Positions 6,035 through 44,595 of a DNA stretch of 64,000 nucleotides are shown here, in pieces; position 1 is the stretch's first letter; every line of letters starts with the position of its first letter. Under the pieces are notes generated by a model. The model searched no databases. It was not told the origin of the DNA and was given only the letters and a program-made list of their open reading frames with translations. The translations under genes were made by a program, and so were the position numbers. The DNA comes from Eubacteriales bacterium (lineage in GTDB: Bacteria; Bacillota; Clostridia; Oscillospirales; CAG-272), in the NCBI GenBank assembly GCA_045612385.1, contig JAZKYZ010000064.1, forward strand, positions 196 to 64,195, written 5' to 3'.

Positions 6035-6346
6035 GGCGAATATACCTACACCCTGCGTCTAACAAGCAAGCTTGTCGAACTTCGGGTGGGGTATGCGAAC
6101 CTTCGCATACGTAAAACGTATGCAAGGTCGAATCTGGAGGGTAGACAAAAAAAGAGAAGCACCGTTTTGGTGCTTGACCGAAAGGGTTTTCGCCTGAGGC
6201 GAATATACCCACACCCTGCGTCTGACAAGCGAGCTTGTCGAACTTCGGGTGGGGTATGCGAACCTTCGCATACGTAAAACGTATGCAAGGTCGAATCTGG
6301 AGGGTAGACCAAAAAAGAGAGGCACCTATTTGGTGCCTCTCTTTTT
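6035..6346. repeat. Two tandem ~163-bp units immediately 3' of tRNA-Arg
   Basis: GGCGAATATACC...GGTATGCGAACCTTCGCATACGTAAAACGTATGCAAGGTCGAATCTGGAGGGTAGAC starts at 6035 and again at 6198. Each copy ends in an A-run plus a GCACC/GGTGC hairpin. Confidence 0.9.
6311..6346 (-). terminator. Intrinsic (bidirectional) terminator after tRNA-Arg
   Basis: AAAAAAGAGAGGCACC-TATTT-GGTGCCTCTCTTTTTT lies directly adjacent to the tRNA CCA end. Confidence 0.8.
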
Positions 6347-6423
6347 TGGCCTACCCGAAAGGATTCGAACCTTCGGCCTTCAGAGTCGGAGTCTGACGCG
6401 CTATCCAGCTGTGCCACGGGTAG
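6347..6423 (-). tRNA. tRNA-Arg (anticodon CCG)
   Basis: Hand-folded cloverleaf. Acceptor CTACCCG/CGGGTAG, anticodon stem TCAGA/TCTGA with loop CTCCGAC, T-arm GAAGG-TTCGAAT-CCTTT, encoded CCA. Confidence 0.85.
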
Positions 6424-6438
6424 ATGGAATGCTATAAT

Positions 6439-6467
6439 ATTCTAACATTATTTTCCTTGTTTGTCAA
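6439..6467 (-). promoter_or_regulatory. Sigma-A-type promoter of tRNA-Arg
   Basis: Minus strand reads TTGACA, 17 nt, TAGAAT, about 15 nt upstream of the tRNA 5' end. Confidence 0.6.
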
Positions 6468-6532
6468 GGTGAAAGAGATAAGGAATTTTGACTTTTTTTG
6501 TATATGTGGATATAATAAAGGTAGAAACCATT

Positions 6533-7195
6533 ATGAAAAAGGAAGGGCATTCGTTGAAAAAGACAAGGCTTTGGTTAAAAAATATTCTACTCACAATTTT
6601 CGGCACGCTTGTATTGTCTCTTGGAACGGCGCTATTCTTGTTGCCAAACCATCTGATTGCTGGTGGAATTTCAGGTTTGGCTATTCTCCTTGAGCATATT
6701 TTCAAATCCATTTCCGTAGAACGCTGGATTTCAATGTTGACCGTTGGGCTGTTTCTTCTTGGTCTGTTTTTACTAAAAAGTGATTTTGCTGTCAAAACAC
6801 TTCTTTCTACTATTATTTATCCTGTGGGTATTGCGCTATTTTCTCCGTTAAAAGAATGGGACGCGCTTGCTTCTTTTTTTGTTATCAGAGAGGAAAAGGA
6901 TATGATCTTGACGCTTTTGATTGCCTCCATATTGGGTGGTGTGTTCATTGGTGTCGGATGCGCAATCACCTTTCTTGGAGGGGGATCTACCGGAGGGGTA
7001 GATGTCATTGCTTTTCTTATCTGTAAACTTTTTCCAAGCCTGCGCGCGTCAAAGGTCATCTTCTTTGTCGATGCTACTATCATTCTCTTGGGAATCTTCA
7101 TCACATCCGATATAGTGAAATCTGTTTTTGGAATTCTATCTGCATTTGTTGGCGCAATTATGATTGAAAAAATATTTCTTTCTGCTAAAAAATGA
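6533..7195 (+). CDS. YitT-family membrane protein
   Basis: Multi-TM protein with GGISGLAILL and GGGSTGGVD motifs typical of YitT/DUF161. ATG at 6533 is preceded by TTGACT, 17 nt, TATAAT (6487-6515). Confidence 0.7.
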   Translation: MKKEGHSLKKTRLWLKNILLTIFGTLVLSLGTALFLLPNHLIAGGISGLAILLEHIFKSISVERWISMLTVGLFLLGLFLLKSDFAVKTLLSTIIYPVGIALFSPLKEWDALASFFVIREEKDMILTLLIASILGGVFIGVGCAITFLGGGSTGGVDVIAFLICKLFPSLRASKVIFFVDATIILLGIFITSDIVKSVFGILSAFVGAIMIEKIFLSAKK

Positions 7196-7237
7196 GATAT
7201 AAAGAGAAATATGTAAATAATTATTTGCAAACTATCG

Positions 7238-8035
7238 TTATTTTAATATTTCAAGGTTTCGTTCAAGTACTTTTCTGCCTCGCCAGGAGAACGCTCTTTT
7301 TTGGAAATCTTCCTTGCTCATAGAGTCAATAAGTTCTTGCGTTAATTCCTCGATAACACTCTCATAAAACATAGGGATGGGTGTTTTTTTGGGCTCCTTA
7401 TTATAGGGACAAGCACTTTGACAGAGGTCACAACCCCACGCTGTATGGTGAGCGCGCATATACGCCTTTTCCCACTCTTCAAGCTCGCCTTTTCTTTGGG
7501 TGATGGCAGATAGACAAGCCTCCCCCTCGCCACGTAAAATGCCCGTCGGACACGCCCTCTTGCAAGCGCCACAATGTGTGCAAAAGTGGATATCGGTCGG
7601 TTCTTTTGCCCCGAGCAATTCTGGTGGAATATCACAGATGAGGTCCCCAATGAAAATATAGGAACCGTATGCTTTGTTAATCAAAAGTCCGTTATCTCCG
7701 AGAATGCCAAGACCGTGAGTCAGGGCAGCGTGTCTTTCGTCGATTGGCGAATGGTCGCCATAGATTTTCATTTTTGCCTGTGGAAAGTTTTTTTTCAGCG
7801 CTTCTTCAAGTCCTTCACCGATTTTACGTATAATCAAGTGATAATCATATGATGCAGCATAACGTGAAATATTTTTTGGTGTGAGGGTGTAGTATGGCAC
7901 GAGAAATAAAATGACGCTTCTTGGCACAAAGTCCTCTCGTGAGAGAAGTTCTCCTTTGGTCACCTTGACATTTTGAAAGTCAGCCACAGCAAAGTATTCA
8001 ATTCCCAAAGACGAAAAAAATGTATTCAAATTCAT
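7238..8035 (-). CDS. queG: Epoxyqueuosine reductase-like (QueG family, short form)
   Basis: YAASYDYH, HAALTHGLGILGDNGLLI and two Cys clusters, CTHCGACKRACPTG and CDLCQSACPYN. Confidence 0.65.
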   Translation of the reverse strand: MNLNTFFSSLGIEYFAVADFQNVKVTKGELLSREDFVPRSVILFLVPYYTLTPKNISRYAASYDYHLIIRKIGEGLEEALKKNFPQAKMKIYGDHSPIDERHAALTHGLGILGDNGLLINKAYGSYIFIGDLICDIPPELLGAKEPTDIHFCTHCGACKRACPTGILRGEGEACLSAITQRKGELEEWEKAYMRAHHTAWGCDLCQSACPYNKEPKKTPIPMFYESVIEELTQELIDSMSKEDFQKRAFSWRGRKVLERNLEILK

Positions 8036-8185
8036 ATGGCGCCTCCTTTTTTACTCATTTTACCACAGAAGCAATAAAAAATCAAGCACCGACAGGGAGA
8101 AAAACGCCTGAAAATATTGACAAGTCTTTGAATTTGGTGTATAATTATAAAATCTATAACTATGTGCATTTTGGAGGGACAAGGA

Positions 8186-9007: not shown

Positions 9008-9019
9008 GAAAGGTCAAAT

Positions 9020-11549: not shown

Positions 11550-11810
11550 AAAAAGGCAGATGCGTGGTTGAACTGAACCCATAAAAACGGACATTGAATA
11601 AAAAGCCTCTTGTAGTAGAATAGAAATATCTACTGCAGGAGGTTTTTTGTATGGGAACTACAATTACGAACGTATCCAACTAAAAACAAAACTGACACCG
11701 TATGAAAAACGATGTCAGTTTCAAGAAATTAAGAACTTTTAAGAGCAAATCAAAGCTATTCTACGAAATGTCTTTTTATTTCGTGTCCATTGCCTTGGGT
11801 TCACTCCATT
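11550..11810 (+). repeat. Dispersed ~260-bp intergenic repeat, copy 1
   Basis: Near-identical to 31595-31857 in the same orientation. Starts right after a stop codon and contains two hairpins. Confidence 0.85.
11606..11649 (+). terminator. Intrinsic terminator inside repeat copy 1 (after yebC)
   Basis: CCTCTTGTAGTAG...CTACTGCAGGAGG followed by TTTTTTG. Confidence 0.75.
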
Positions 11811-16103: not shown

Positions 16104-16376
16104 AGGTTTTCAAACATAAGAAACTGGTAAGTCATTATGTTAACAAAACGAACCCTTTACTTATCAATGTGCTCCATAGTGCATTTTACACAGTCGAAAT
16201 TTTCTAGTGCGTCCACACCGAAAGGGCTGATGATATACCAGTAAAAAAGTGCAACTTGTAAAAGGGTACTTCGGTCAGGCGATGATTAACAAGGCGCACG
16301 CCAACGGCAGCATTTGTAACGATTAGATTTTAAAACTGTCCTTTAGAGTATCTCCCTATAGGATACGACTTTTTTC

Positions 16377-16653
16377 GTGCGGACCATGTCGCTCGTTAAG
16401 AAAACAGTTGATAACTGTTTTTAGAGCGAAGACCGAGAACTATGTTCGAGGTCTGTCCCGTCGGAGCCCAAGCAAAAAGAGCACCACAAGGGTGTTTTTT
16501 AGTGCGGACGATGTCGCTCGTTAAGAAAACAGTTGATAACTGTTTTTAGTGCGAAGACCGAAGACTATGTATGAGGTCTGTCCCGTCGGAGCCCAAGCAA
16601 AAAGAGCACCACAAGGGTGCTCTTTAGTGCTTGGTGCGGACGACGGGACTTGA
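16377..16653. repeat. Two tandem 125-bp units plus a terminal 22-nt tRNA-Leu 3' fragment
   Basis: Units start at 16377 and 16502 with GTGCGGAC(C/G)ATG (tRNA-Leu 3'-end-like). Each ends with the AAAAAGAGCACC-ACAA-GGGTG hairpin. A third start at 16632 is the perfect tRNA 3' end copy. Confidence 0.9.
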
Positions 16654-16752
16654 TTCTCCTCGCGAACTGCGCTCGTCGGTCAGTCGCGGCTCTGACAGTC
16701 CACCGGACTGTCATTCACTACCGCTCCCCTTCAAGTCCCCTCATCCAAACCA

Positions 16753-16785
16753 CACAAAAACACCCTCCGAAAATCGGAGGGTGTT
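16753..16785 (-). terminator. Intrinsic terminator downstream of the recombinase gene
   Basis: Minus strand reads ACACCCTCCG-ATTTT-CGGAGGGTGT followed by TTTTTGTG. Confidence 0.7.
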
Positions 16786-17059
16786 TCGCGTGGTGCACCA
16801 CTTTAAGCCTAAATTGAACCAAGTGTTCAGTTTGGGCTTTTTGCTTTTCTTATGGCTTTTTCGACGTCGGTGCTGACGGCGGTTTATGCCGCGAAAGACT
16901 CTTGACACGAGTAAGGGGGTGTGGTAGGCTTCATGCCATAGGCAAACAAACAGCCCCTCGGGGCTGGGTGGTTGGCTTCTTTGCCTTGCACCCACACTCC
17001 CGAGAGGCTCGTGTCAAGAGTACCGTGGAATAAATAGCCGTTAGCTTAATGTATGTGAG

Positions 17060-18538
17060 TTACCCCACATACATTTCAAGCTCCATTGTTTGTGCGGTGT
17101 ATATGCTAATAAAGCCTTTATAAAAAGAAAAGCCCTGACTTTCGTCAGAGCCGTTCTTAATGGGGCTATTGATGTAAATTTCAATTCTGTCATTATAAAG
17201 CACTAATTCTTTGATGAAAAGACTAACTATCATAGTAGCTTCAAGCATTAATGCTTCTTCGTAGTATTCACGGATAATGCTTTCGGGTACTTTTACAGCT
17301 GTTTTACTCTTTTCTATAAGCAATTCACGCTCTAACGCCTCTTGCTGTTCTTCAAGCTCGTGTAAGCGTTTTTTAGTGGTCTTTGAAACTATGCCTTGTT
17401 CAATAGCAGCCATAAGGTTATCTAAAGCAGTATCTATCTTGGATTTTTCTCTTGCAATTGTTTTCACTTTGGGATTATCGGTACAGTATTTATCTTGCAA
17501 TTTGAGCAGATTTTTCACGATTCCATTAAGCGTTTGCGGTTTAGAAAATTCTCGTGTAATAGCCGTTACGATTGCTTCTTCCAAGGCTTCTTTTGAGTGA
17601 ATTGCTTGCTCACAGCCGTTGTGATATACCTTTCTTCCGAGGCATTTATAATAACGCTTTATCTCTCCGTTTCTTGCCGTTCCCGTGTCGGAGCTGATAG
17701 GATGTCCGCAATATCCGCATCTCATTTTATGGCGAAATAGATATACAGTCTTTATGCTACGTTTACCGCCCTCGTTTTCTTTAGACTTTGCTCGTACAGC
17801 TTCAAATGTATGTGTAGGCACGATTTGAGGATACATATTATCTACTCTCTCGTCACCGTGGTAGTAAACACCGGAGTATTTCTTGTTTTTAAGTATGCTG
17901 TATATGGTATTTTTAGCGAATGGCTTTCCCTTGTAAAGTACGCCCTTTGCCGTTAATGCCTTTATAATATCCTTTACAAATACGCCGATAGAGTATTGTT
18001 CAAATATGAACCTTACTGTTTCGGCTTTTTCTTCGTCTATAAGTATTTTCTTATCGACAACCTTATATCCGTATGGCAATCCACCGCCTTGGTAATGTCC
18101 TTTAGCTCTATTCTCTCGCATACCTCTTTTTACTTTTTGAGATAAGTCGGCGGAGTAATATTGATTCATACCTTCAAGTAAACTTTCAAGTATAATTCCT
18201 TCGGGCGTATCGGGGATATTTTCCATAGCGGACAATACCTTTACGCCATTTTTCTTTAGCGTATTCTTATGTATGGTAGCTTCGTATTTGTTTCTTGAAA
18301 ATCTGTCGAGCTTATACACAAGAACGTATGTCCATTCTTTTCTTGCGCTATCTCTTATCATACGCTGAAAATCTGGGCGCATATCATTCGTTCCCGTCAT
18401 AGCTCTGTCGATGTACTTTGCAAGAATAAGAATATCTTTAGCTCTTGCAAATTCCTCGCATACTCGAAGCTGACCTTCGATAGATTGTTCAGTTTGGCTG
18501 TCACTTGAATAACGTGCATAGATTACTGCTGTTTTCAT
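17060..18538 (-). CDS. Large serine recombinase
   Basis: MKTAVIYARYSSDSQ... (resolvase catalytic Ser region), recombinase domain, zinc-ribbon CGYCGHPISS...YYKC and a coiled-coil C-terminus. AAAGGAG RBS precedes ATG 18538. Confidence 0.9.
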   Translation of the reverse strand: MKTAVIYARYSSDSQTEQSIEGQLRVCEEFARAKDILILAKYIDRAMTGTNDMRPDFQRMIRDSARKEWTYVLVYKLDRFSRNKYEATIHKNTLKKNGVKVLSAMENIPDTPEGIILESLLEGMNQYYSADLSQKVKRGMRENRAKGHYQGGGLPYGYKVVDKKILIDEEKAETVRFIFEQYSIGVFVKDIIKALTAKGVLYKGKPFAKNTIYSILKNKKYSGVYYHGDERVDNMYPQIVPTHTFEAVRAKSKENEGGKRSIKTVYLFRHKMRCGYCGHPISSDTGTARNGEIKRYYKCLGRKVYHNGCEQAIHSKEALEEAIVTAITREFSKPQTLNGIVKNLLKLQDKYCTDNPKVKTIAREKSKIDTALDNLMAAIEQGIVSKTTKKRLHELEEQQEALERELLIEKSKTAVKVPESIIREYYEEALMLEATMIVSLFIKELVLYNDRIEIYINSPIKNGSDESQGFSFYKGFISIYTAQTMELEMYVG

Positions 18539-18749
18539 TTTGGAATCTCCTTTTTTCTTTAGAAATTTGTCTTTCGGCAGGAGCGACCAAAACGGAAATG
18601 AAGGCGAGGTCAAGGAAATAGGCGAAAATATTGTATTTTAGGCGGCTATATAAAAATCATCAGCAATATTTTCACCCCTTTACCTCGGCGGCGTTTTCGT
18701 TTAAGCTCCACAACCGGCGAAAGATAAATTGTTTTTATGTCTACAGTTA

Positions 18750-18896
18750 TTACGGCGTATCTTCTTTGTTATCATCGTGAAAGAGATCTATAATGCGAGT
18801 AAGTAATGCGTTATAAAAAGCGTTCTGCTCGGCTTCGCTAAACTGCTTAATATCCATCTCATCGCATATAGTAATTTCGGGCGTTTCGTTTCTCAC
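18750..18896 (-). CDS. Possible 48-aa acidic protein upstream of the recombinase
   Basis: GGAGG, 7 nt, GTG. Translates VRNETPEITICDEMDIKQFSEAEQNAFYNALLTRIIDLFHDDNKEDTP. Not in the ORF track (under 60 aa). Confidence 0.35.
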   Translation of the reverse strand: MRNETPEITICDEMDIKQFSEAEQNAFYNALLTRIIDLFHDDNKEDTP

Positions 18897-19490
18897 TCGC
18901 TAACCTCCTTTTTGCTTGGTATAAAGAGGTTAACATATAAATCCCATCAAATCCACCTCTCAAGCTTTCTGCTTTTGCGATGCTACGGCACAGTTTTTAT
19001 TCGTCATTTTACGAGGGTGATTATTGAACTTACAGCGGTGGACAGTTTTAACCATTAGAGCCAAAACCATTGAAAATTATACTGAATTTTTATATACTGA
19101 TTATGACGTTTCGGATAACAACAACTTATTTGACAAGCAAATAAAAAAGCCCCTCTTTCGAGGAGCAAAAAACATAAAACCGTGACGGAGCAAACGCAAA
19201 AAGTTTAATCCACCAATTTAGCCGCCGACGGATAAAGCGGAGGTCTGTGCAAGCGGCTTAGCGCACAGCTCCGCTTCCGTTCGGCTTTGGTGGATTTCTT
19301 TTCTTGTCCGTTTGTTTTGCGCGAGGGCGTGTGCTTGTCTGGCGGCGCGAAGCGACGCCACTTGTATCAAGACAAGCACACGCCCTGCGCTCACGCTTAA
19401 ATCGTAGACTTATTTTTGTGGACGGATTTGATTCATATCATACCGATGAATTAGAGCATAAAAGCAATAGCGACGAGCCTAAGCTCGCCG

Positions 19491-19772
19491 CTAAAAACAG
19501 ATGTTTGCCGAATTTACGGAGTTGTTTTCTGTACATTGCTGCACAGGGAGGCAAAAGTTCACCTCCTGGGCATAATCACCATTCTGTGAATATTCGACAG
19601 TTGCAGGTGTGTGGCTGTCGACTTGGGGTGTATAGGCAATTATAGCAAGAGCCCATATTGTTATAAATGCGCTGAGGAAAATGGCCACAATTTTTAATAC
19701 TCGTCTTGTGGTTGATTTTTTTGAACGATCAATTTTTCTTTTTTTCGCCTTGTTAGGTTTGAAACTAAACAA
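19491..19772 (-). CDS. Doubtful small membrane-anchored protein
   Basis: Basic N-terminus plus one TM, but a TTG start without a clear RBS, embedded in structured non-coding sequence. Confidence 0.25.
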   Translation of the reverse strand: MFSFKPNKAKKRKIDRSKKSTTRRVLKIVAIFLSAFITIWALAIIAYTPQVDSHTPATVEYSQNGDYAQEVNFCLPVQQCTENNSVNSANICF

Positions 19773-20016
19773 TGCACCAACTAACTGTTTTATTAGCTCG
19801 CCGTATAACTAGGTCGCCGCAGCCTATAAGGACCGAGGGAGGATTGTATTATTCATACCTTCTCAACTTTGTTACACCGCTTGCGCGGAGGCTACGTCAT
19901 TTCTGCGTAGCTCTTGCGGTCACCCGCAAGTTCAGACTGTGCCTTCATCCGCATGGGATGCTCCGTGTCCAGTCGTTACACCTTCCCTAAAAGGGCTTGG
20001 CTCGGCATTTTCTGCT

Positions 20017-20655
20017 TTATATTATATATATATCTTCTTGCTGATATTCGATGTTTTTATTATACCCATATCTATTATAGTCGATAGACCAAATACATCC
20101 ATCTTCATCAGTACATTGTATAGAAAGATGCCTTGGGGAAGTTCCCTTATCTCCGCTCATATAAAAACATTGCAGTTCATTTTCAAAGTTATAGTAATTA
20201 TCGCTATATTTGCAATCCAAATTAATTTTGACCTGTTGTTTCGAAGTCAACAGTGCACATACGGCATCACCGCAAAAATGAATATCTGTTAAATCTCGAT
20301 TTCCAACATTAGTTATCTTGATTATATAGGCTTGTTCCTCATAATCCAAAACTTCTATACTCAAAACAACTTTAGGTCTTATTTCATACTTTCTACGCTC
20401 TTCTTCATTTTTTTGTTGCCAGAAATACAATAAGAAAGATGAAAATATTCCTAACGCAACTCCATAGTATGAAAGAGTGTCGATTTCAAGCGTTTTTTGA
20501 AACAATTCGGATTTTTCAGCCAAAAGACAAAATATGAAAGGCATTGATAAAATTACAACCACACAAAAAATTGTGAATAATGTTCTATAATTTCCAATAA
20601 TCCATTTTTTAATTTTCGGTACGATGCTAAACTTGTTTTTCGTTTCTTTTTTCAT
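20017..20655 (-). CDS. Hypothetical 2-TM protein with a soluble C-terminal domain
   Basis: 212 aa with two hydrophobic helices followed by a beta-rich Cys-containing domain. No family recognised. Confidence 0.55.
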   Translation of the reverse strand: MKKETKNKFSIVPKIKKWIIGNYRTLFTIFCVVVILSMPFIFCLLAEKSELFQKTLEIDTLSYYGVALGIFSSFLLYFWQQKNEEERRKYEIRPKVVLSIEVLDYEEQAYIIKITNVGNRDLTDIHFCGDAVCALLTSKQQVKINLDCKYSDNYYNFENELQCFYMSGDKGTSPRHLSIQCTDEDGCIWSIDYNRYGYNKNIEYQQEDIYII

Positions 20656-20705
20656 AATTAATATACCATGATGGAGCCGCCACGAGGGCGGCTCTGTTTT
20701 GTTGT

Positions 20706-23700
20706 TTAAAGTTTAATCCACATAGCTGGAACAACACCCTCGCCATCACTTATGGACGAATATCCATTATCATCAACAGTACCTGTGTTATAAACTACCA
20801 TTACAGAGTTTATATAATTTTTATCAGGTGAGCGAAGCCACCAATCTCCGTATCCATAACTTGATTCAGCCGTAGAAATCCAAGTACCAATTGCACGAGC
20901 GTAATCGGTAGTCTGCATTTTTCGGTTTGTATTACTTGCTAAGTCGTAATCGCTCTTTATTGCTTCTCGATAAGATAGTAGAAATACCTTGTCCTCGGTA
21001 TTTTCACAAGCATATGAATTATTGGAACTTTCTGTACTAGCGGCACTATTGTCGACAGTGGTGACTTGTATCAATTCTTTTTGAATTTCTCCAAAAGCTT
21101 TGTTATAAAATTCGTTATTAAGCCACTGCCTAACATCACTATCTTTATAATTGTTGTTTTTATCTTCATCGTAAGAATGGTCGTCTATAATACTGTCGCA
21201 AAGTATAAATGCTGATTCTCCATTTTCCGATAGAACTCTCCAACGAATTGGCTCTACCTTGAAATAATACGTTTCGCCTGCTGTTACCGCTTCATCATTA
21301 GAGAATTTATAGCCCAAGTTATACTGAGTAGAAACTATTTTAGCATAGTAAAAACCATCACTTCCCATATAATATCCTCGTTCATCTTTGGTGTTTGTTA
21401 TTTGAACACCGTCGGATTTAATGGTTTGAGGATATTCCCCGAAATATATGTATTCTCCAACTCTATAATAGCCACGCCAATAATACACCTCTAAAACCAA
21501 ACTTCCGTCACCGCTGATTTTACCGCTTAATTTACTAATGCCATTGTTAACATTTAATCCGTCAAATGTTTTTGATATTACTTGTGCCGTTGCGTCAGTT
21601 GCTCCAAAAAGATACTGCGTATCTACAAGCTCATATCCTGTTCTATCATTGGTTTGCTTGTAGTGCTTAACAATATAAGGAGTATCTTCATCTGCACTCC
21701 ACTTAGCAGTGTAAGTGACATTCTTTTCTGCATTGAAAGTGAAGGTCAGCGTATCGCAAACTTTAGTATCGCCTTCATACCAACCAATGAAGGTATATCC
21801 GGGATTTGAAGAAGCAACAAGTTTTACTTCACTTCCGATTTCATAATTGCCCCCATCGCTAACAAATCCTGCTTTGGGATTTTCCGTGGCGGTTGATATC
21901 GAGCAAGTATTAACAGCTATCCACATAGAAGGAATGACACCTATACACTCGGTGGTTGGTTTGCCCGATCCATCATAAATGTTTCCATTGCTGTATAGCA
22001 TTAGGACAAGTTCGCAGCTTGCGCCCGATGCTCCGGGAGAACTAGTCCATGATGCGTAGGCATAGTTGGTTCCCGACGAAAGTTCAAGTCCAATAGCTTT
22101 CGAAAAATCAGTAGCCATCCAATTATCTCTATCGGAATTATTTGGGAAATATTTGCGCAGATCCGAAGCTGAAATCAAAGACACTTTATTCTGATTTACA
22201 ATTTGAACGATCTGTTGTTGTAAAGATGTAAATGTCGTATTGAAAAATTCTTGTGTTAACCAACTGCGTATCTCGCTTGTTTCGTAGTTGTTATTATACT
22301 TACTATCATCGAATCTTCGACTATCTATTACACTATCGCACAGAATAAAGGCATTGCCATCTTTTTCGGAAAGAATTCTCCATCTAATCGGTTCGGCCTT
22401 GAAATAGTAGATATTGCCTTCTACAATATATTCCCCGGAAGAAAATTGATAATATTTGTCATAGCGAGGACCTGCCACAATTTTCGCATAATAATATCCG
22501 TCCGACCCAAGATAATATCCACGATTATCTACAGTTGTCGTTATTGTGACATAATCCGCCTTTAATGACTGAGGATATTCTCCGAAGTATATATATTGTC
22601 CTTCGCGATAGTATAGATCCAAGGTATAATAAACGTTGAGTACCAAAGTGCCATCACCATTAATATTGCCGGTCAATACACTCTTTTCAGCGTTGAAGAG
22701 ATATCCGTCTAATTCATCAGCAACAAATGTAGCTAAAGTATCGGTTGTTCCAAGTAAAGTTATTGAGTTAAACAATACCGAATTATATCCCGCCTTAGTC
22801 ATATTATCTTTATAGAAATTGACAGTATACGGAGTATCTTCATCCGCGCTCCACTTAGCAGTATAAGTAACGTTTTTTTCTGCATTGAAAGTGAAGGTCA
22901 GCGTGTCACATACTTTAGTATCACCCTCATACCAACCAATGAAGGTGTAACCGGGATTTGAAGAAGCAACAAGGCTTACAGAATTTTCGTAAGCATATTT
23001 GCCGCCCGAGGTTACAGTACCAGCCTTTTTGTTTTCTACGGAAGAGTTAATTGTATAAACGTCTCTCGTGTAGTAGACTTTGAGAACAAGTTTGCCATTA
23101 CCTACTATATTGCCACTAATTACGCTATTTGTATTTGTGAATGTAAAGTGTGCATACTCAGAGATAACAGCATTTGCGGTGGTATCAGTTATTCCTTCGA
23201 GAACGACAGTATCCACCTTGTCATATCCTGTTTTATTCTTATTTTCAAGATAATACTCAACAGTGAACTTCGTGTCATCGTTGGCAGACCATTTTGCCGT
23301 AAGAGTAACCGCATTTTCAACGGTAAACTTGTAGCTTTCAGTTTCGCAAACAAGAGAGTTTCCTGCATACCAACCGAGGAAGGTGTAGCCGGGGTTTGTG
23401 GTAGCAGTTACGGTGATTGTTTTGCCGTAACGATAAGCGCTTCCGCTTGTTACACTACCAGCCTTTGCATTCATCGCACGAGTGGTAACGGTATAACTAC
23501 TTCTCGTATAGTAAATTTTAAGGACTGCATCGCCTTCACCGTCGATATTTCCGCTTGCATTACTGATTGCGGCATAATAGGTGAAATGGGGATAGCTGTT
23601 TATCGTTGCGGTTGCGAGAGCATCTGTTGTTCCCATAAGAATATCGCTGTGGATAAGGTAGTAATCGTTGTTATCGATATTCTGATGATAGTACTCTACG

Positions 23701-26201
23701 GTATAGAAGGTATCCTCGTTTGCCGACCACTTTGCAACAAGAGAAATGTTTCTCGTAGGCATAAACGTATATGCAAGGTCTCCGCTGACGAGAGCGTTTC
23801 CTTCATACCATCCGAGCCAAGTATATCCGGCTTTAACGGTTGCGGTTACAGTGATTTCGTTACCATAAACTTTGGTAGCTCCCGACGTAACAGAACCGCC
23901 CTTTGTGTTTTCCGCAGAGGTTGTTACGGTGTAGCTGTTTCTGTCATAGTAAACCTTGAGAACGAGAGTTCCTTCGCCATCAATATTTCCGCTTGTAGTA
24001 CTCTTTGACGAATTGAACTTAAAGTGTTCAAAGGTCTTGGGACTTACCGATGCGGTTGTATCGGTTGTGCCTGCAAGATTTTCGGTTTCCAAGTTAAGTA
24101 TATCATAGCCGTTTTTGTTGGAATTTTCGAAGTAATATTCTACCTTGTAGGGAGTATTTGTGTTTGCCTTGAAGTTAGCAACGAAGCTAAGGTTCTCGGT
24201 TCTACCCAAAATCTTTACGTTAAGGGTAGGCTCTGTAACTCCCTCGTAAGTCCAACCAAGGAAGGTGTATCCTATCTTTGTAGGATTGATAAGCGTAAAT
24301 TCGCTTTCGATGGTATAGGTTGTGGGGTTCTTACCGTCAACTGTACCGCCGTTAAGATTATACTCGATATCGTAAAGAACGAGATCCCAAACGGCAACTA
24401 AGTTCATATCGGTGGTAAGATTATATTTACCGCCTGTTACAAAGTTTGTTCCGTCAGACCAGCCCGTAAAGGCGTGTCCTGCGTATTCGGGCGTGGGAAG
24501 AATTATTTCTGCATCATAATCAATCGGGATTTCGGTTTTGTCCACAGTTCCGCCAATAGCATCAAGATAAATCTTGAAGGAATCAGCTTTCCAATTTGCG
24601 GTAAAGGAAAGCGCACCTATAGAGTCGTTAATGCTGACGTTAAGAGTGGGCTCGGTAACTCCATCATAAGTCCAGCCGAGGAAGGTATAACCCGTTCTTG
24701 TAGGATTGATAAGCATAAATTCACTCTCGATGGTGTAAGTCGTTGGATTTGTTCCATCTACAATACCACCGTTAAGCGTATAGCCGATATCATAGCTTAC
24801 AGCATCCCATTTTGCAACAAGATTTACGTTCTTGCTTGTTTTCCAAGCACCGCTTACGTAAGGAGTTGTATCCTCATACCAACCTGCAAAGCTATATCCC
24901 GTCTTTGTGGGGGTAGGGAGCGTAATATTTGCATCATAGGTAGCAGTTTCATTTTCATAGCTTTCGTTGCCACCGTTGGTGTTAAAGGTTACGGTATAGG
25001 TGTTAGCCACCCAATTTGCAACGTAGCTTCTGTTGCCAATGCTTCCACTTGCGATCTCAAGAGCAAGCGTAGGTTTGTTAACGTATGTTCCCGTCCAACC
25101 GAGGAAGGTGTAACCGGTCTTTTCGGGAGTTGAAAGCGTAATGTTTTCGCTTACAAAATTGTATGTTGTGGGATTGGCGGTAGAGAGTGTGCCACCGTCA
25201 AGGTCGTATTCGATTTCATAGTTAATAAGCGACCATTTTGCTACAAGGGTAACGTCGGAATCGCCCTTCCAGATACCGTTTCCAAAAAGGTCGTTGCCAA
25301 GGTACCAGCCGTCAAAACTATATCCCGTGCGAGTAGGTATTTCAAGCGTATAGTTAATATCATAGACAACGCCTGTTTCCTCGTGTGCAACAGTACCGCC
25401 GTTTACATCGTAGGTAATTACGTACTCGTTTGCGAGCCAAATGGCAGAAATTGTTTCGTTTTTAGTGATAGGCGCAGTAAAATCATAACTCCAGCCCGAA
25501 AGAGTATATCCCTTTTTATAGGTATCTGGAGCTGACACAAGAGAGCCTTCTTCAATAATCACGGCTTCTGCAGTAGTGCCACCGTCTGTGTCAAACATTA
25601 CAGTGTACATAGGTCTACGACGGATATTCAACTTATACATCTCGGATTGACCGTTCTCAGCCGTAACGAGAGCGTAGTAAACGTTGTCACCGATTTCCAA
25701 AGGAGCAACCTTGCTGGAAATAGTAGTGTTTCCGTAAATATCGCTCGTTAAAGTCCAAGAGCTTTTAGAGTTTATAGTTACCTTTGTACCGAGCGAAAAT
25801 GCCTCGGTTGAGTTAGAAACCGTTATGGAATACTCGGTGTCGGATATCTTAGTAAATCCATCAAACTCAGCCTCAACGCCTTGAACCGATTCCGAACTCG
25901 TCCATTTAGCATAAACGGACATATTTTCGGAGAGCGGAGCATCAAGGAGAGAATTGGCGGTGAAGGGCTTGTTCCAAACGTCCTTATCCCAATACCAACC
26001 GTCGAAGACGTGCCCTTCTTTAATAGGATCATTCGGTATCTTGATGGTTTCCTTTCCGCTTGTGTTAACGGTTGCGTAAATTTCACCGTCAACAACAAAG
26101 TCAACCTTGAATTCGACTTTTCCGCAAGATGCAAGTCCGAGCGTTATGCCAAGGACGAGTGTCAAGCAAAAAAGAGCAGACAGTAGCTTTTTCATAAGCA
26201 A
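20706..26201 (-). CDS. Giant surface lipoprotein (1831 aa) with many Listeria-Bacteroides repeats and two GEYPQ...EPIRWR (DUF6273-like) domains
   Basis: Signal peptide plus lipobox LASCGK. More than 15 copies of the GY(T/S)FxGWY...W repeat. Two YIYFGEYPQ...EPIRWR(I/V)LS modules. Confidence 0.9.
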   Translation of the reverse strand: MLMKKLLSALFCLTLVLGITLGLASCGKVEFKVDFVVDGEIYATVNTSGKETIKIPNDPIKEGHVFDGWYWDKDVWNKPFTANSLLDAPLSENMSVYAKWTSSESVQGVEAEFDGFTKISDTEYSITVSNSTEAFSLGTKVTINSKSSWTLTSDIYGNTTISSKVAPLEIGDNVYYALVTAENGQSEMYKLNIRRRPMYTVMFDTDGGTTAEAVIIEEGSLVSAPDTYKKGYTLSGWSYDFTAPITKNETISAIWLANEYVITYDVNGGTVAHEETGVVYDINYTLEIPTRTGYSFDGWYLGNDLFGNGIWKGDSDVTLVAKWSLINYEIEYDLDGGTLSTANPTTYNFVSENITLSTPEKTGYTFLGWTGTYVNKPTLALEIASGSIGNRSYVANWVANTYTVTFNTNGGNESYENETATYDANITLPTPTKTGYSFAGWYEDTTPYVSGAWKTSKNVNLVAKWDAVSYDIGYTLNGGIVDGTNPTTYTIESEFMLINPTRTGYTFLGWTYDGVTEPTLNVSINDSIGALSFTANWKADSFKIYLDAIGGTVDKTEIPIDYDAEIILPTPEYAGHAFTGWSDGTNFVTGGKYNLTTDMNLVAVWDLVLYDIEYNLNGGTVDGKNPTTYTIESEFTLINPTKIGYTFLGWTYEGVTEPTLNVKILGRTENLSFVANFKANTNTPYKVEYYFENSNKNGYDILNLETENLAGTTDTTASVSPKTFEHFKFNSSKSTTSGNIDGEGTLVLKVYYDRNSYTVTTSAENTKGGSVTSGATKVYGNEITVTATVKAGYTWLGWYEGNALVSGDLAYTFMPTRNISLVAKWSANEDTFYTVEYYHQNIDNNDYYLIHSDILMGTTDALATATINSYPHFTYYAAISNASGNIDGEGDAVLKIYYTRSSYTVTTRAMNAKAGSVTSGSAYRYGKTITVTATTNPGYTFLGWYAGNSLVCETESYKFTVENAVTLTAKWSANDDTKFTVEYYLENKNKTGYDKVDTVVLEGITDTTANAVISEYAHFTFTNTNSVISGNIVGNGKLVLKVYYTRDVYTINSSVENKKAGTVTSGGKYAYENSVSLVASSNPGYTFIGWYEGDTKVCDTLTFTFNAEKNVTYTAKWSADEDTPYTVNFYKDNMTKAGYNSVLFNSITLLGTTDTLATFVADELDGYLFNAEKSVLTGNINGDGTLVLNVYYTLDLYYREGQYIYFGEYPQSLKADYVTITTTVDNRGYYLGSDGYYYAKIVAGPRYDKYYQFSSGEYIVEGNIYYFKAEPIRWRILSEKDGNAFILCDSVIDSRRFDDSKYNNNYETSEIRSWLTQEFFNTTFTSLQQQIVQIVNQNKVSLISASDLRKYFPNNSDRDNWMATDFSKAIGLELSSGTNYAYASWTSSPGASGASCELVLMLYSNGNIYDGSGKPTTECIGVIPSMWIAVNTCSISTATENPKAGFVSDGGNYEIGSEVKLVASSNPGYTFIGWYEGDTKVCDTLTFTFNAEKNVTYTAKWSADEDTPYIVKHYKQTNDRTGYELVDTQYLFGATDATAQVISKTFDGLNVNNGISKLSGKISGDGSLVLEVYYWRGYYRVGEYIYFGEYPQTIKSDGVQITNTKDERGYYMGSDGFYYAKIVSTQYNLGYKFSNDEAVTAGETYYFKVEPIRWRVLSENGESAFILCDSIIDDHSYDEDKNNNYKDSDVRQWLNNEFYNKAFGEIQKELIQVTTVDNSAASTESSNNSYACENTEDKVFLLSYREAIKSDYDLASNTNRKMQTTDYARAIGTWISTAESSYGYGDWWLRSPDKNYINSVMVVYNTGTVDDNGYSSISDGEGVVPAMWIKL

Positions 26202-26210
26202 TACCTCCTA

Positions 26211-26246
26211 AAAATACAAAAAGTGCGCCCGCAAAGCGAGCGCACC
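26211..26246 (-). terminator. Leader terminator (possible attenuator) just upstream of the giant gene RBS
   Basis: Minus strand reads GTGCGC-TCGCTTTGCGG-GCGCAC followed by TTTTTGTATTTTT, then AGGAGG and the ATG. Confidence 0.6.
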
Positions 26247-26375
26247 CCATTATGTACCTCACCTTGCCGCGACGCAATTTTCATAATATCTTAACTCAAG
26301 TATATGAAAAGGTGGGAGTACTAAAATGGCATAGTACACCCTTGAGTTAAGAATATTAAATTACGTCGCACTCTA

Positions 26376-26404
26376 ATTATAGCACACTTTTACAAAAAAG
26401 TAAA
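26376..26404 (-). promoter_or_regulatory. Sigma-A-type promoter for the giant surface protein gene
   Basis: Minus strand reads TTTACT, 17 nt, TATAAT. Confidence 0.55.
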
Positions 26405-26475
26405 TATTTTCAGGCGATTTATTACGCGCAAAAAAAGCGCAAGTCAAAACCTTTCGGTTCAACTTACGCTCATAG

Positions 26476-26560
26476 TGGTGCGGACGACGGGACTTGAACC
26501 CACATGAATTGCTTCACTGGAACCTGAAACCAGCGCGTCTGCCAATTCCGCCACGTCCGC
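26476..26560 (-). tRNA. tRNA-Leu (anticodon CAG)
   Basis: Acceptor GCGGACG/CGTCCGC, anticodon loop TTCAGGT, long variable arm TGAA-GCAA-TTCA, T-loop TTCAAGT, encoded CCA. Confidence 0.85.
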
Positions 26561-26770
26561 ATATTAAATTATGTCTTGTTTAATTTTGATTCGTCAAGAC
26601 CCTCGAATTGGAAGCCACGCTTCCAGCGCTGTCTGCAGTACGTACTCGCGAGCGAGTAGTACACAAGAATGCTTCTCATTCTTGCTTCGCCTACGGCTCG
26701 TCCGCCACGTCCGCATATTAAATTTTGTCTTGCTTCGCCTACGGCTCATTTGCCACGTCCACATTGACCT
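26561..26770. repeat. Partial duplications of the tRNA-Leu 5' end plus its upstream leader
   Basis: CCACGTCCGCATATTAAATT(A/T)TGTCTTG at 26551-26578 and 26705-26732. A degenerate third copy CCACGTCCAC at 26753-26762. GCTTCGCCTACGGCTC occurs twice. Confidence 0.85.
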
Positions 26771-31594: not shown

Positions 31595-31857
31595 AAAAAG
31601 GCAGGAAATGCATTGAACTGAACCCATAAAAATGGACATTGAAATAAAAAGCCTCTTGTAGTAGAATAGAAACATCTACTACAGGAGGTTTTTTGTATGG
31701 GAACTACAATTACGAACGTATCCAACTAAAAACAAAACTGACACCGTATGAAAAACGATGTCAGTTTCAAGAAATAACGAGCTTTTAAGAGCAAATCAAA
31801 GATATTCTACGAAATGCTTTTTTGTTTCGTGTCTATTGCCTTGGGTTTAATCCATGG
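31595..31857 (+). repeat. Dispersed ~260-bp intergenic repeat, copy 2
   Basis: Aligns along its length with 11550-11810 with scattered substitutions. Again starts just after a stop codon. Confidence 0.85.
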
Positions 31858-32059
31858 TTGCAACTGCTTTTTTGACAAAACACAAGTTTTATCAATATTT
31901 TGTACTATTATGGGGCAAAATATTTGATTTCTACCGAAAATGTTAGGAAATGTAAAAAAGTGACATTTAAAAAACTTGCTTTTTGTCTGATGAAAAATTA
32001 TTGACAATAACATTTAAAATATGTTAAAATAAAGAAAACCCCAAAGGAGGATATATATT

Positions 32060-41137: not shown

Positions 41138-41174
41138 ATAATTTGTAAACTATTATTAACAAAAAGGTGATATT

Positions 41175-42200: not shown

Positions 42201-42206
42201 AGAAAA

Positions 42207-42237
42207 AAGGCTTTCCACTCAGGGGAAAGCCTTTTTT
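42207..42237 (+). terminator. Intrinsic terminator after the uvrB-to-aldolase gene string
   Basis: AAGGCTTTCC-ACTCAGG-GGAAAGCCTT followed by TTTTT. Confidence 0.75.
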
Positions 42238-42347
42238 ACAATTTGCCGAAATTTGTTGTGCAAGTCTACAAAAGCATTATATTTTTGTTGTATTTTTCAA
42301 TCATTTGTGTTAAAATGGAAAAAAAGAAAGCTATAGGAGTATATGCT

Positions 42348-43151
42348 ATGCCAATTCAATCCCTTTCGACCCTGATTCAGTCGAATATCGACCTTCGTCA
42401 CATTTCTGCTTTTTGTTTAAAATCGGAAAAAGGCTCGCTTGGCTCTGCTACGATAGACAAGCCTCGCCAGCGCTCGGCGCTTGTTTATGTAGACGGTGTC
42501 TTAACTGTGCAGTTTGCTAACAAAAAAGTCACCTATTCTACGGGCGATCTTCTCTTTTTCCCACACGGGGCAAGTTATTCGCTTTATTATAACGAAACCA
42601 CCACGCAATATGGTGTGAACTTTATTCTTTTGGATGAAAACGGCGAGGAAATTATCCCCTTTGATGTTCCTACGCTTCTTGCCGACAATACGCAGGATAG
42701 TCTGATTGTGGAGCAATTTGTCCGTTGCGTCAATATGTATCGGACGTCCACCAACCGTATTGCCCTCAAAGGTGAGGTGTTCTCGCTTTTTTCCACTGCG
42801 ATTGTTACATACACAACCAAAAAAGCTCCCGCAGGAATTCAACCTGCGATTGATATTATACGCAATAGTATTCACGACGAACTTCGCATTGCCGATCTTG
42901 CGCTTACTTGTGGTATGAGCGAAAGCACCTTCCGTCGGGAATTCCATCGTTATGCAGGTGTTAGCCCGAAACAGTACATTCTGGATCGTAAACTCAATAA
43001 AGCAAAGCAAATGCTTCGCTCTGGTTATTATCCAATCAAGGAAATATGTATGATACTCGGCTTTTTTGATGATGCTTATTTTTCCAAAATCTTCAAAAAG
43101 AGTACGGGAATGACACCAATGCAGTATGCCGAGAAGGCAGGAAAAAAATGA
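42348..43151 (+). CDS. AraC-family transcriptional regulator
   Basis: Cupin-like N-terminus and a C-terminal AraC HTH (LTCGMSESTFRREFHRYAGVSPKQY...GFFDDAYFSKIFKK). AGGAG RBS precedes ATG 42348. Confidence 0.85.
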   Translation: MPIQSLSTLIQSNIDLRHISAFCLKSEKGSLGSATIDKPRQRSALVYVDGVLTVQFANKKVTYSTGDLLFFPHGASYSLYYNETTTQYGVNFILLDENGEEIIPFDVPTLLADNTQDSLIVEQFVRCVNMYRTSTNRIALKGEVFSLFSTAIVTYTTKKAPAGIQPAIDIIRNSIHDELRIADLALTCGMSESTFRREFHRYAGVSPKQYILDRKLNKAKQMLRSGYYPIKEICMILGFFDDAYFSKIFKKSTGMTPMQYAEKAGKK

Positions 43152-43152
43152 T

Positions 43153-44118
43153 ATGGCTACGCTTATCCCCTCGTTTTATCCGGCATTTCGTTGCGACCCC
43201 TCTGCGTGTCATCATTCCTGTTGTATCGAATGGGAAATTGACATTGACGAGGAGAGCCTTGTTCGCTATCACGCGCGAACAGATGACTTGGCGAAGCATA
43301 TCTTGGCGCATATCGTAAATACGCCAACGCCTCATTTTTCCTTGTGCGAAGGAGAGAGATGTCCTTTCTTACAAGGAGATGGTCTTTGTTCCATTATTTT
43401 GGCAGAAGGGCAGGGAACACTTCCTGAAATTTGTCGGGAGCATCCTCGCTTTCGCAACTTCTACGGAGGAAACCTTGTTGAGTTATCTGTGGGACTTTCC
43501 TGTGAAATCGCAGTCACCCTTCTTCTAAAAGAAGAAAATCTTGATTTTCTTATGTCGGCAAACGATATGGATGCGCTCACTGACCTCGACAGTTTGTCTT
43601 TTGTTGAATTTGATGAAAAATTTGATACGCCAAACGAATACGATATCCTTTTTCTTCAAAAGAAATATCAGATTATTCGTTCCTTTTTGCGCTCCAACCT
43701 CTCGTTTGATGAACTGGCAAAAAACGCTCTTGACACGCTCGCTATCCATAATTACTGCGAGAATAGTTATCGTGCGCAACTGGCTCTCTCCACCCTTGAA
43801 ACCTTGAACACTGATTTTTCTACCCTTTTTCAGCGAGCATCAAACACAGAGGAATTAAAAAAGCAAGGAGAAAAATTGCTTTTAGCCGATAGCGAAAAGA
43901 AAAGGCTGTTGGTTATGACTTTTTTCCGTCACGCAAATACTGAGAGCTTTTATTCTATGGAAAGCGCTTTTGCTTTTTCCTTGTTCTTTGTCTCTCTTGT
44001 TGACGTTCTCATCTTGGAAATGAATATAGATAAGGTAGAAGCCATCCGTATTCTATCATCCGAAATCGAATACAGCCAAGAAAATACCGATATCCTGCTC
44101 GATATTTTTGATGTTTGA
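43153..44118 (+). CDS. FliB-family (flagellin lysine-N-methylase-like) Cys-rich protein
   Basis: FRCDPSACHHSCCIEWEIDID...CPFLQGDGLCSI resembles the FliB/YkgJ CxxCxxCC family. Confidence 0.55.
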   Translation: MATLIPSFYPAFRCDPSACHHSCCIEWEIDIDEESLVRYHARTDDLAKHILAHIVNTPTPHFSLCEGERCPFLQGDGLCSIILAEGQGTLPEICREHPRFRNFYGGNLVELSVGLSCEIAVTLLLKEENLDFLMSANDMDALTDLDSLSFVEFDEKFDTPNEYDILFLQKKYQIIRSFLRSNLSFDELAKNALDTLAIHNYCENSYRAQLALSTLETLNTDFSTLFQRASNTEELKKQGEKLLLADSEKKRLLVMTFFRHANTESFYSMESAFAFSLFFVSLVDVLILEMNIDKVEAIRILSSEIEYSQENTDILLDIFDV

Positions 44119-44519
44119 GGTATGCGAACTCCTCGCCTACGGCGACGAAGTTCGTTCGATACAGGAGCACAAAAAAAAGAAGGACAACCACGAGGGTTGT
44201 CCGCTCCTGCGGAGTAGACGCTTCGCCTACGGCTACGCTATATACCTCGCTATGCGAGGTATGCGAACTCCTCGCCTACGGCGACGAAGTTCGTTCGATA
44301 CAGGAGCACAAAAAAAAGAAGGATGACCGTTCGGTCATCCTGCGAAACAAATGTTTCGCATATAACGGTACGTATTTTTTGGAGAAGACGCTTCGCCTAC
44401 GGCTACGCTATATACCTCGCTATGCGAGGTATGCGAACTCCTCGCCTACGGCGACGAAGTTCGTTCGATACAGGAGCACAAAAAAAGAAGGACAACCACG
44501 AGGGTTGTCCTTCTTTTTT
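44119..44519. repeat. Three tandem units (139- and 170-bp spacing) immediately 3' of tRNA-Lys
   Basis: GGTATGCGAACTCCTCGCCTACGGCGACGAAGTTCGTTCGATACAGGAGCAC plus an A-run plus a hairpin starts at 44119, 44258 and 44428. The first copy begins 1 nt after the fliB-like stop codon. Confidence 0.9.
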
Positions 44520-44595
44520 TGGTGCTCCTGCGGAGAATCGAACTCCGGACACCTTGATTAAAAGTCAAGTGCTCTACCAGCTGAGCTACAGGGGC
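44520..44595 (-). tRNA. tRNA-Lys (anticodon UUU)
   Basis: GCCCCTGTAGCTCAGCTGGTAGAGCACTTGACTTTTAATCAAGG...GGAGTTCGATTCTCCGCAGGAGCACCA. Canonical D and T arms. Confidence 0.9.

Follow-up and report, generated by a model that had tools for sequence, protein, structure and literature searches.

tRNA genes are classic landing sites for genomic islands and prophages, and the sequence that accumulates beside them is usually treated as debris. Here we describe arrays of small, structured units at the three tRNA genes of a 64,000-nucleotide (nt) stretch of DNA from a Eubacteriales bacterium (GenBank assembly GCA_045612385.1, contig JAZKYZ010000064.1, positions 196 to 64,195), hereafter the window. The closest described systems are islands that integrate into tRNA genes and the related tmRNA gene. 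The ssrA islands of Dehalococcoides encode a serine recombinase resembling CcrB, insert midway along the T loop of the tmRNA, have repeats of 20 bp, build up in tandem, and may, it has been suggested, include cis-mobilizable members (PMC3146451). Tycheposons integrate serially and leave partial tRNAs (bioRxiv 10.1101/2020.12.28.424599), and non-autonomous members bounded by attachment sites have been proposed for tDNA-integrating islands (PMC3146451; bioRxiv 10.1101/2020.12.28.424599).

The arrays in the window resemble such islands in that an intact tRNA gene is accompanied by direct copies of its 3' end, the repeat starts in the T loop, copies build up in tandem beside the tRNA, and copies of the tRNA-Leu 3' end enclose a gene for a large serine recombinase. 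They differ in that the units are geneless cassettes of only about 100-170 bp, with an integrase present only in a segment of ~9.8 kb at tRNA-Leu, and in that each unit adds an inverted copy of the tRNA end and a terminator, with the same bodies reused across different tRNAs. Unlike island remnants, moreover, the units are not decaying but conserved, with 88-90% identity of their cores between relatives against 40-49% at four-fold degenerate sites. Neither the Dehalococcoides islands nor the tycheposons have an inverted copy, a terminator built in, so small a size or one body that occurs at several tRNAs.

The window has a G+C content of ~44%, and its proteins have close relatives only in uncultured Clostridia known from metagenome assemblies. 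ARAGORN places three tRNA genes in it, all on the minus strand, to which the window coordinates below refer unless noted: tRNA-Arg(ccg) (6347-6423), tRNA-Leu(cag) (26476-26560) and tRNA-Lys(ttt) (44520-44595). An initial annotation of the window had assigned each its own promoter. This was borne out by near-consensus sigma-70-type promoters with an extended -10 at 6467-6439 (Arg), 44643-44615 (Lys) and, for tRNA-Leu, at two predicted sites, the distal P1 (26803-26775) and a proximal one (26597-26568). Read in the direction of the tRNA, a 3' array consists of the tRNA, a bidirectional terminator, an antisense copy of the tRNA tail, a hairpin-forming body, a sense copy of the tail and the next terminator. 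What is copied, imperfectly, is the stretch between T loop and CCA that forms the last 22-28 nt of the neighbouring tRNA. A unit thus amounts to a non-coding body flanked by inverted copies of a tRNA tail, and in complete units the two ends are predicted to pair in a closing stem. When all ends were compared with all tails, the left end of every unit best matched the antisense strand, and the right end the sense strand, of the tail of its own tRNA, and antisense-tail scores were 11-18 at tRNAs with units versus 6-10 at nine others. Read directly, the sense and antisense copies end in or beside the T loop (TCAAGT..., CGATCC..., TTCG...), and the intact tRNA is followed by a direct repeat of its 3' segment at Lys (CTCCGCAGGAGC), Arg (AACCCTTTCGGT) and Leu (22 nt), as well as at tRNA-Trp and tRNA-Lys in relatives. 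The first units all start directly after the T-run of the terminator. The repeats described in the initial annotation as tandem units mimicking the ends of each tRNA are thus real, but they are bodies bounded by inverted T-loop-to-CCA copies rather than loose mimics. The long palindrome that it had drawn around each tRNA 3' end, with the terminator loop at its centre and its arms extending into the acceptor end of the tRNA, is present at tRNA-Arg (25-nt arms at 6302-6326 and 6332-6356, 96% complementary) and at tRNA-Lys (overlapping arms of 16-19 nt), but not at the tRNA-Leu gene, which at its present position has an ordinary terminator.

Short motifs link the arrays, as had been noticed at the outset, and their exact matches lie far above chance and in the arrays only. 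In the window GGTATGCGAAC has five exact matches, all of them within the arrays at tRNA-Arg and tRNA-Lys; tolerating one mismatch raises the number to six, where 0.66 would be expected by chance, and the additional match (63522-63532) falls outside the arrays. GCTTCGCCTACGGCT occurs four times (0.04 expected), confined to the Lys array and to units upstream of tRNA-Leu, and the Leu 3' units lack both motifs. The units fall into at least four sequence families with one common architecture. In family 1 (Arg and Lys), GTTCGCATAC is invariant between two hairpins whose stem sequences differ yet always pair, and the same core and layout recur with different hairpin sequences in a Eubacteriales metagenome-assembled genome (MAG), contig L027. 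The family-2 body is common to tRNA-Leu in the window and tRNA-Trp in the related contig L149 (~88% identity over the central 50 nt, with a compensatory A-T/T-A swap); the single unit after tRNA-Trp has tRNA-Trp tail copies at both ends. Family 3 (Leu) and a unit after tRNA-Lys in the related contig L123 follow the same plan with unrelated bodies. When all unit types were searched against the window and 24 related loci (~190 kb), copies were found at tRNA termini only.

The L027 units are also of note in themselves: three of them, each 207 nt long, occupy positions 1-560 at the edge of the contig (SGB_7537), which does not include the tRNA, and the antisense ends of neighbouring units are unlike each other. 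Other clusters of short hairpins lie downstream of tRNA-Leu in the related contig L161 (2690-2880, minus strand) and beyond the tRNA-Trp unit in L149 (4700-4815, minus strand), punctuated by a repeated octamer or heptamer (GATTTCAT/ATGAAATC; ATGAAGC), and tRNA 3' flanks in this clade seem generally to be rich in such structures. In an unrelated metagenome contig of 73% G+C (L131), GAGTTCGCATACC occurs three times in a short repeat region at ~2690-2790 (pattern match at 2753-2782), ~0.8 kb from a tRNA-Cys gene, which could be chance or a distant analogue.

The units are conserved well beyond their surroundings. The cores of the Lys units are 89-90% identical to those of the related contigs L121 and L142 (77-80% when aligned globally with the ragged ends included), whereas at the four-fold degenerate sites of the neighbouring tyrS gene identity to the window is just 49% for L121 and 40% for L142. 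This excess argues against debris in neutral decay and for units that are either under selection or of recent spread. RNAalifold predicts 15 pairs in H1 and H2 for five family-1 cores, of which four changed on both sides, none on one side only, and one is broken. Such paired changes do not by themselves demonstrate selection, since template switching in quasi-palindromes can yield them without it (PMC8794818).

Copy number varies between relatives, from 0 to 2.5 units. At tRNA-Lys the window has 2.5 units, L121 and L142, whose tyrosyl-tRNA synthetases (TyrRS) are 95-96% identical to that of the window, have one each, L123 has a different unit, and L143, in which another tRNA directly adjoins tRNA-Lys, has none. 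An exact look-up of the window's TyrRS itself returned no record. The tRNA-Leu of L150 likewise has no units. Promoter, tRNA-Lys, terminator and unit lie flipped as one block in L121 and L142 with respect to tyrS and the gene for a 330-residue protein (window 44381-44675 versus L121 11264-11556 and L142 5330-5534), with breakpoints at A/T runs. The two terminator types of the window's Lys array each stand next to tRNA-Lys in a different relative. Distal terminators have lost one arm, and the last units are cut off exactly at the stop codons of convergent genes.

The initial annotation had placed units at tRNA-Leu as well. The 5' copies are indeed adjacent to the gene, and a 3' array exists too, but together with its palindrome it lies at 16370-16842, 9.8 kb from any tRNA gene and behind an exact 22-nt repeat; on its present 3' side the tRNA-Leu gene has an antisense-tail score of 7, which is background. 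The repeat (16632-16653) reproduces the final 22 nt of tRNA-Leu exactly, from halfway through the T loop to CCA. Between it and the tRNA lies a segment of ~9.8 kb (16654-26475) that encodes a large serine recombinase of 517 amino acids (17060-18613; Pfam Resolvase, Recombinase and Zn ribbon domains; PHROG 95 integrase, E=1e-103) and a surface protein of 1831 amino acids with Listeria-Bacteroides repeats (20706-26201), and within which G+C dips to 36% at 20-22 kb. This segment is probably an integrated island, although its inner boundary could instead lie near 16843. On the simplest reading, the island entered the T loop of tRNA-Leu and pushed the original 3' array away, and all three tRNAs therefore have 3' arrays. 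The family-2 unit that adjoins the distal copy may be either an end of the island or part of the older array; a search of viral contigs for relatives of the serine recombinase, as a test of the family-2 body as the attachment region of the island, found none.

Our preferred interpretation, to which we give a probability of roughly 40%, is that the units are non-autonomous cassettes that recombine at a hot spot in the T loop and 3' end of tRNA genes and are then amplified and rearranged locally through the long palindromes. The initial annotation had listed a mobile or recombination-made miniature element among its readings, and such an element fits best with bodies shared between loci but carrying local ends, copies at tRNA termini only, polymorphism and conservation. 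From these features, together with the matching of each unit to its target and the stem-preserving substitutions, we infer a T-loop crossover, an enzyme that performs it and actual mobility of the cassettes. According to this interpretation, a cassette would enter through recombination in the T loop or 3' end and would supply a replacement 3' end and terminator, so that the tRNA stays intact. The exact tRNA-Leu copy 9.8 kb away, with a serine recombinase gene in between, is what the integration of an island at this very position would be expected to leave. Copies might then multiply, shrink and occasionally invert in place by recombination or template switching between the palindromes. Bodies would move from one tRNA gene to another through exchange on either side of the body, at the near-universal T-loop sequence, such that the outer, tRNA-specific part of the ends stays matched to the local gene. 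The copies upstream of tRNA-Leu would have arisen in a like manner, from an event in the D loop of a tRNA-Leu copy lying upstream.

Several observations weigh against this interpretation. Neither the Arg and Lys arrays nor those of relatives contain or adjoin a recombinase or its remnant, and the neighbours of the Arg and Lys arrays are housekeeping genes. No circular form, no empty site at close range and no autonomous parent element was found, nor any target-site duplication of the kind typical of transposases flanking the units. A double-stranded circle of 100-170 bp is an awkward recombination substrate and, to our knowledge, an inverted tRNA-end copy has no demonstrated role in any tRNA-targeting integrase system. 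The likeness between the Arg and Lys bodies is limited to ~16 nt and the architecture. Sampling was thin, with about ten tRNA loci in a single uncultured clade and one distant MAG, and scans of wider collections returned almost only chance matches. A loose pattern built on GGTATGCGAAC...TCGC listed at least 120 matches in a genome collection, of which L027 was the only true relative among those read with G+C below 52%; tighter family-1 and family-2 patterns gave chance matches only in metagenome and viral scans. JGI and IMG/VR appear not to include this lineage. A more specific form of the idea, which we consider quite improbable, would be a cassette system like those of integrons or the CTX phage, anchored at the tRNA genes of this clade. 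In such a system the inverted tails would fold in single-stranded DNA and imitate the double-stranded T arm and acceptor end of the target, and a recombinase, possibly the serine type in the window or a host enzyme, would insert the cassette, along with a new 3' end and terminator, into the T loop. Because specificity would then be set by the cassette's own nucleic-acid ends and not by protein, this form would explain the occurrence of one body at several tRNAs.

The units upstream of tRNA-Leu are the best candidates for a function. The first 16 nt of the tRNA and its leader are repeated there twice (26701-26716 and 26749-26764). Unit u1 (26563-26716) comprises the copy of tRNA-Leu nt 1-16 (26701-26716), three hairpins (26684-26699, 26664-26684 and 26638-26662) within a 78-nt insert, the tRNA-like stretch GCAGACAGCGCTGG (GCAGAC.GCGCTGG; 26623-26636) and a decayed remainder, and u0 (26717-26764), just downstream of P1, is a copy of u1 shortened by an internal deletion. 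The unit thus sits between the predicted promoter P1 and tRNA-Leu, inside the P1 transcription unit. The u1 core (26623-26716) is identical to its counterpart in L161 at 84 of 95 positions (88%), whereas the spacer before tRNA-Leu matches at 26 of 71 (37%), the four-fold sites of the neighbouring NUDIX gene at 45%, and tRNA-Leu itself at 73 of 85. The differences in u1 fall in loops (seven or eight in 11 loop or bulge nt versus none or one in 44 stem nt, P=1e-5), and a C to T change in its acceptor-strand copy parallels one in the tRNA. From sequence, the action of u1 as an RNA leader is a serious possibility. A small open reading frame (ORF) in this unit was discarded, as direct reading showed it to lack a ribosome-binding site and to be frameshifted relative to L161. 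The alternative-pairing hairpins reported initially are real as hairpins, but the idea that the 5' copy pairs alternatively, and in a conserved way, with sequence downstream was rejected, since that pairing is predicted in the window and lost in L161.

This evidence bears most directly on the view that the units are selected cis-acting leader or trailer modules of tRNA transcription units, with extra copies being duplications of a useful module. The 5' unit would be a structured leader, and the 3' antisense copy would either pair with the 3' half of the tRNA in read-through transcripts or act as a very strong bidirectional terminator or insulator, affecting maturation, decay or termination. 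We regard this view as somewhat unlikely for the units as a whole. It is strongest for u1, given its position, its conserved stems and its changes in parallel with the tRNA, and it would also accommodate the above-neutral conservation and compensatory changes of the Lys units and the start of the first units straight after the terminator T-run. Against it, the compensatory changes have the template-switching origin mentioned above as an alternative, the bodies fall into four or more families unrelated in sequence, truncated copies end against stop codons, and the orthologous tRNAs of L143 and L150 do without units. Transcription of the 3' units themselves finds little encouragement: each follows an intrinsic terminator, no promoter is predicted inside the 3' arrays, and ARAGORN finds nothing tRNA-like in the units. 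Rfam, run at E<=10 on all four array regions, gave no family match, only a few weak matches far below threshold, mostly to miRNA families with long hairpins and to a mix of small RNAs. At these permissive thresholds the domains of group II introns, tmRNA and tRNA-like families were all rejected. The sense strand folds better in nine of 15 units and the antisense strand in six, and there is thus no strand bias and no G-U signature of an RNA made from one strand, which favours a DNA-level phenomenon for the 3' units. The early suggestion that the units are expressed tRNA-like RNAs is therefore not supported for the 3' arrays; only the Leu 5' unit lies within a transcription unit and shows selection on its stems.

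If the units owe their origin to DNA-level processes, an element need not be involved. They could be by-products of replication template switching, akin to tandem inversion duplications and origin-dependent inverted-repeat amplification (ODIRA), in which replication forks change strands at two hairpins, one of them that of the terminator, and so copy the tail in alternating orientation, and slippage and asymmetric deletions then produce arrays with no element or function. The mechanism is documented (PMC4689423, PMC8794818) and agrees with the alternating orientation of the tail, the junctions centred on hairpins, the one-arm deletions in distal palindromes (as expected of unstable palindromes), a 12-nt "empty" palindrome at 16790-16801 and the A/T-run breakpoints of the tRNA-Lys inversion. 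We nonetheless judge it unlikely, as it leaves unexplained the homologous bodies with different ends at different tRNAs, the conservation far above silent sites across lineages, and the recurrence of the design at the tRNA-Arg, tRNA-Lys, tRNA-Leu and tRNA-Trp loci as well as in a distant MAG. About as unlikely is that the units are passive scars, that is, attachment-site arms and displaced tRNA 3' ends left after larger islands were mostly deleted, with serial events piling up. This was another of the initial readings, and several observations speak for it: direct tRNA 3'-end copies start in the T loop, a recombinase-bearing segment lies between exact 22-nt copies with the family-2 unit directly adjoining the distal one, and partial-tRNA arrays from serial integration are documented (bioRxiv 10.1101/2020.12.28.424599; PMC3146451). 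Against it, the units are far better conserved than neutral DNA and their stems are maintained, no integrase fragments were found in them, the deletions would need identical end points each time, and the inverted tRNA-end copy is not known from such scars. The simpler notion of decayed inverted or tandem tRNA pseudogenes was rejected: local alignment to the whole tRNA is significant at the ends only, and the bodies shared across tRNAs argue to the contrary. Finally, mis-joining of palindromes and tandem repeats during assembly of the MAG is highly improbable as the source of the architecture. The related contigs L027, L142 and L123 do end within or beside arrays, so the repeats do disturb assembly, and unit copy numbers in short-read assemblies are uncertain; yet assemblies made independently of each other, from different samples and with different assemblers (SPAdes NODE, MEGAHIT k141, scaffolds, an NCBI MAG), show the same architecture with diverged sequence.

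Comparison with other classes of repeat leads to a similar balance of likeness and difference. Like MITEs (miniature inverted-repeat transposable elements) and repetitive extragenic palindromic (REP) doublets forming hairpins (REPINs), the units are small, non-coding, structured, intergenic and strain-variable, with terminal inverted repeats of 22-28 nt. In contrast to them, the inverted ends copy the adjacent tRNA and are not family-wide, there is no target-site duplication, and the units are not dispersed but sit at tRNA termini only in the ~190 kb. No autonomous relative, parent transposase or REP-associated tyrosine transposase (RAYT) was found for them in the window or in phage, plasmid or viral collections, and blastn of the arrays against phage and plasmid collections returned nothing. 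The units contain inverted repeats, but the promoter between them by which an inverton is recognised was not predicted. The bacterial interspersed mosaic elements (BIMEs) of enterobacteria are palindromic units in alternating orientation separated by fixed motifs, built on one genome-wide REP sequence present in hundreds of copies. The arrays share with BIMEs a short alternating sequence, two kinds of intervening motif and a position at gene ends near terminators, but here the alternating unit is a specific tRNA tail that differs by locus, and the motifs are absent from the rest of the window. In integron attC sites and the folded single-strand site of the CTX phage, inverted target-like sequences fold into a stem that imitates a double-stranded target (PMC5027507, PMC4792948). 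Here, too, two inverted target-like sequences lie 60-110 nt apart, cassettes form arrays at one anchor, and unit lengths (~95-135 nt) are within or near the attC range. Differences from integrons are the lack of IntI, attI and GTTRRRY boxes, the tRNA-derived stem, and the lack of any sign of single-strand recombination at these loci. The T-loop sequences GTTCGAA and GTTCAAG, read directly, do not fit GTTRRRY, and no tyrosine recombinase was present among the ORFs scanned, which were a subset of those in the window. Tandem inversion duplications and ODIRA likewise show alternating orientation, short-hairpin junctions and later asymmetric deletions (PMC4689423), but are large, transient amplifications of unique sequence with no conserved bodies common to different loci. 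The initial statement that the units are not a described repeat class is consistent with these searches, although partial-tRNA arrays at integration hot spots are known as a broader phenomenon.

What sets the arrays apart from ordinary debris at tRNA genes is their fixed design, their conservation far above neutral, the reuse of bodies across tRNAs, and their link to copy-number change and to flipping of a tRNA cassette. If the units are mobile, they would be miniature elements of a new, tRNA-specific type, with ends that the target dictates, which bears on the evolution of integration specificity and, in principle, on programmable insertion. If they are functional, they would point to an unrecognised layer of tRNA gene architecture in gut Clostridia. 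Whichever interpretation holds, the units break short-read assemblies at tRNA loci, and the arrays are open to being mistaken for pseudo-tRNAs or spurious ORFs, with likely mis-annotation as hypothetical proteins. Gene callers or ORF lists place spurious ORFs of 74-148 amino acids over them at 4697-4921 in L149 and at 6046-6417 and 44115-44561 in the window.

The individual arrays follow the common plan with local variations. At tRNA-Arg, the bidirectional terminator T1 (6311-6346) forms the centre of the palindrome and is followed by unit 1 (6177-6310), made up of an antisense copy of the tRNA-Arg 3' end (6289-6310), hairpin H1 (6263-6290), the core GTTCGCATACC (6253-6263), hairpins H2 (6205-6257) and H3 (6189-6203), and the sense 3' remnant AACCCTTTCGGT (6177-6188). 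Terminator T2 (6147-6176) separates it from unit 2 (6034-6147), which is 95-97% identical to unit 1, truncated after H2, and abuts the promoter of the next gene (6007-5979); as a tandem repeat the array consists of two copies, 6034-6173 and 6197-6336, that are 95% identical. A search for the orthologous Arg locus in relatives through the neighbouring lipoprotein gene found that synteny was lost, and yielded the tRNA-Trp unit instead. At tRNA-Lys, T1 (44480-44519) is again the palindrome centre, and unit 1 (44375-44479) comprises an antisense tRNA-Lys end (44459-44479), H1 (44435-44462), the core (44428-44438), H2 (44412-44432), H3 containing GCCGTAGGCGAAGC (44386-44409) and the sense remnant TCTCC (44375-44385). 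A spacer hairpin and a second, different terminator T2 (44310-44341), which resembles the one beside tRNA-Lys in L142, fill 44310-44374. Unit 2 (44203-44309) is 99% identical to unit 1 and ends in the sense copy CTCCGCAGGAGC (44203-44214). The half terminator T1' (44171-44202) and truncated unit 3 (44117-44170) complete the array at 44117-44202, the truncation point overlapping the stop codon of the convergent ORF 43126-44118; the tandem repeat, of two full copies and one truncated, spans 44072-44486.

In the displaced Leu 3' array, a hairpin or terminator Ta (16805-16842) lies on the side of the recombinase gene and Tb (16756-16786) has a perfect 13-bp stem. Between these two terminators, direct reading located the perfect 12-nt palindrome GTGGTGCACCAC (16790-16801, without strand), which reads as the antisense start (TGGTGC) of the tRNA-Leu tail fused to its sense end (GCACCA), an empty unit. 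The family-2 unit (16632-16752) has 22-nt inverted ends, antisense at 16731-16752 and sense at 16632-16653, that are 82% complementary and enclose a 77-nt body. Two family-3 units follow (16370-16625; 125-nt period, 93-94% identical), each with a terminator (16599-16625, 16474-16500), an antisense tRNA-Leu end (16575-16596, 16450-16471), a body and the sense remnant CATCGTCCGCAC (16502-16513, 16377-16388).

The recombinase-bearing segment holds two further structured regions. Directly downstream of the serine recombinase gene, a perfect 14-nt inverted repeat (ACTCTTGACACGAG; 16898-16911 and 17008-17021) encloses 96 nt with a further inner hairpin and is possibly a recombination site or a small RNA. 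A long structured leader at 26210-26400 (minus strand) extends from a promoter (26404-26376) to the gene for the 1831-residue protein, with nested long-range pairings (GCGACG...CGTCGC and CTTAACTCAAG...CTTGAGTTAAG), a 13-bp terminator at 26220-26248 and no Rfam match, and may be an attenuator or an unknown riboswitch. Elsewhere in the window, two ordinary-looking RNA elements score above their Rfam gathering thresholds, a T-box leader upstream of tyrS (46065-46303, minus strand, 101 bits) and a purine riboswitch (51365-51461, plus strand, 48.5 bits). An intergenic element of ~245 nt is present in two copies that are ~94% identical (11565-11810 and 31610-31860), with 19-nt inverted-repeat ends (GAACCCA...GGACA), an inner terminator-like hairpin and a 10-codon ORF with a good ribosome-binding site; it looks like an ordinary MITE that is not related to the tRNA units.

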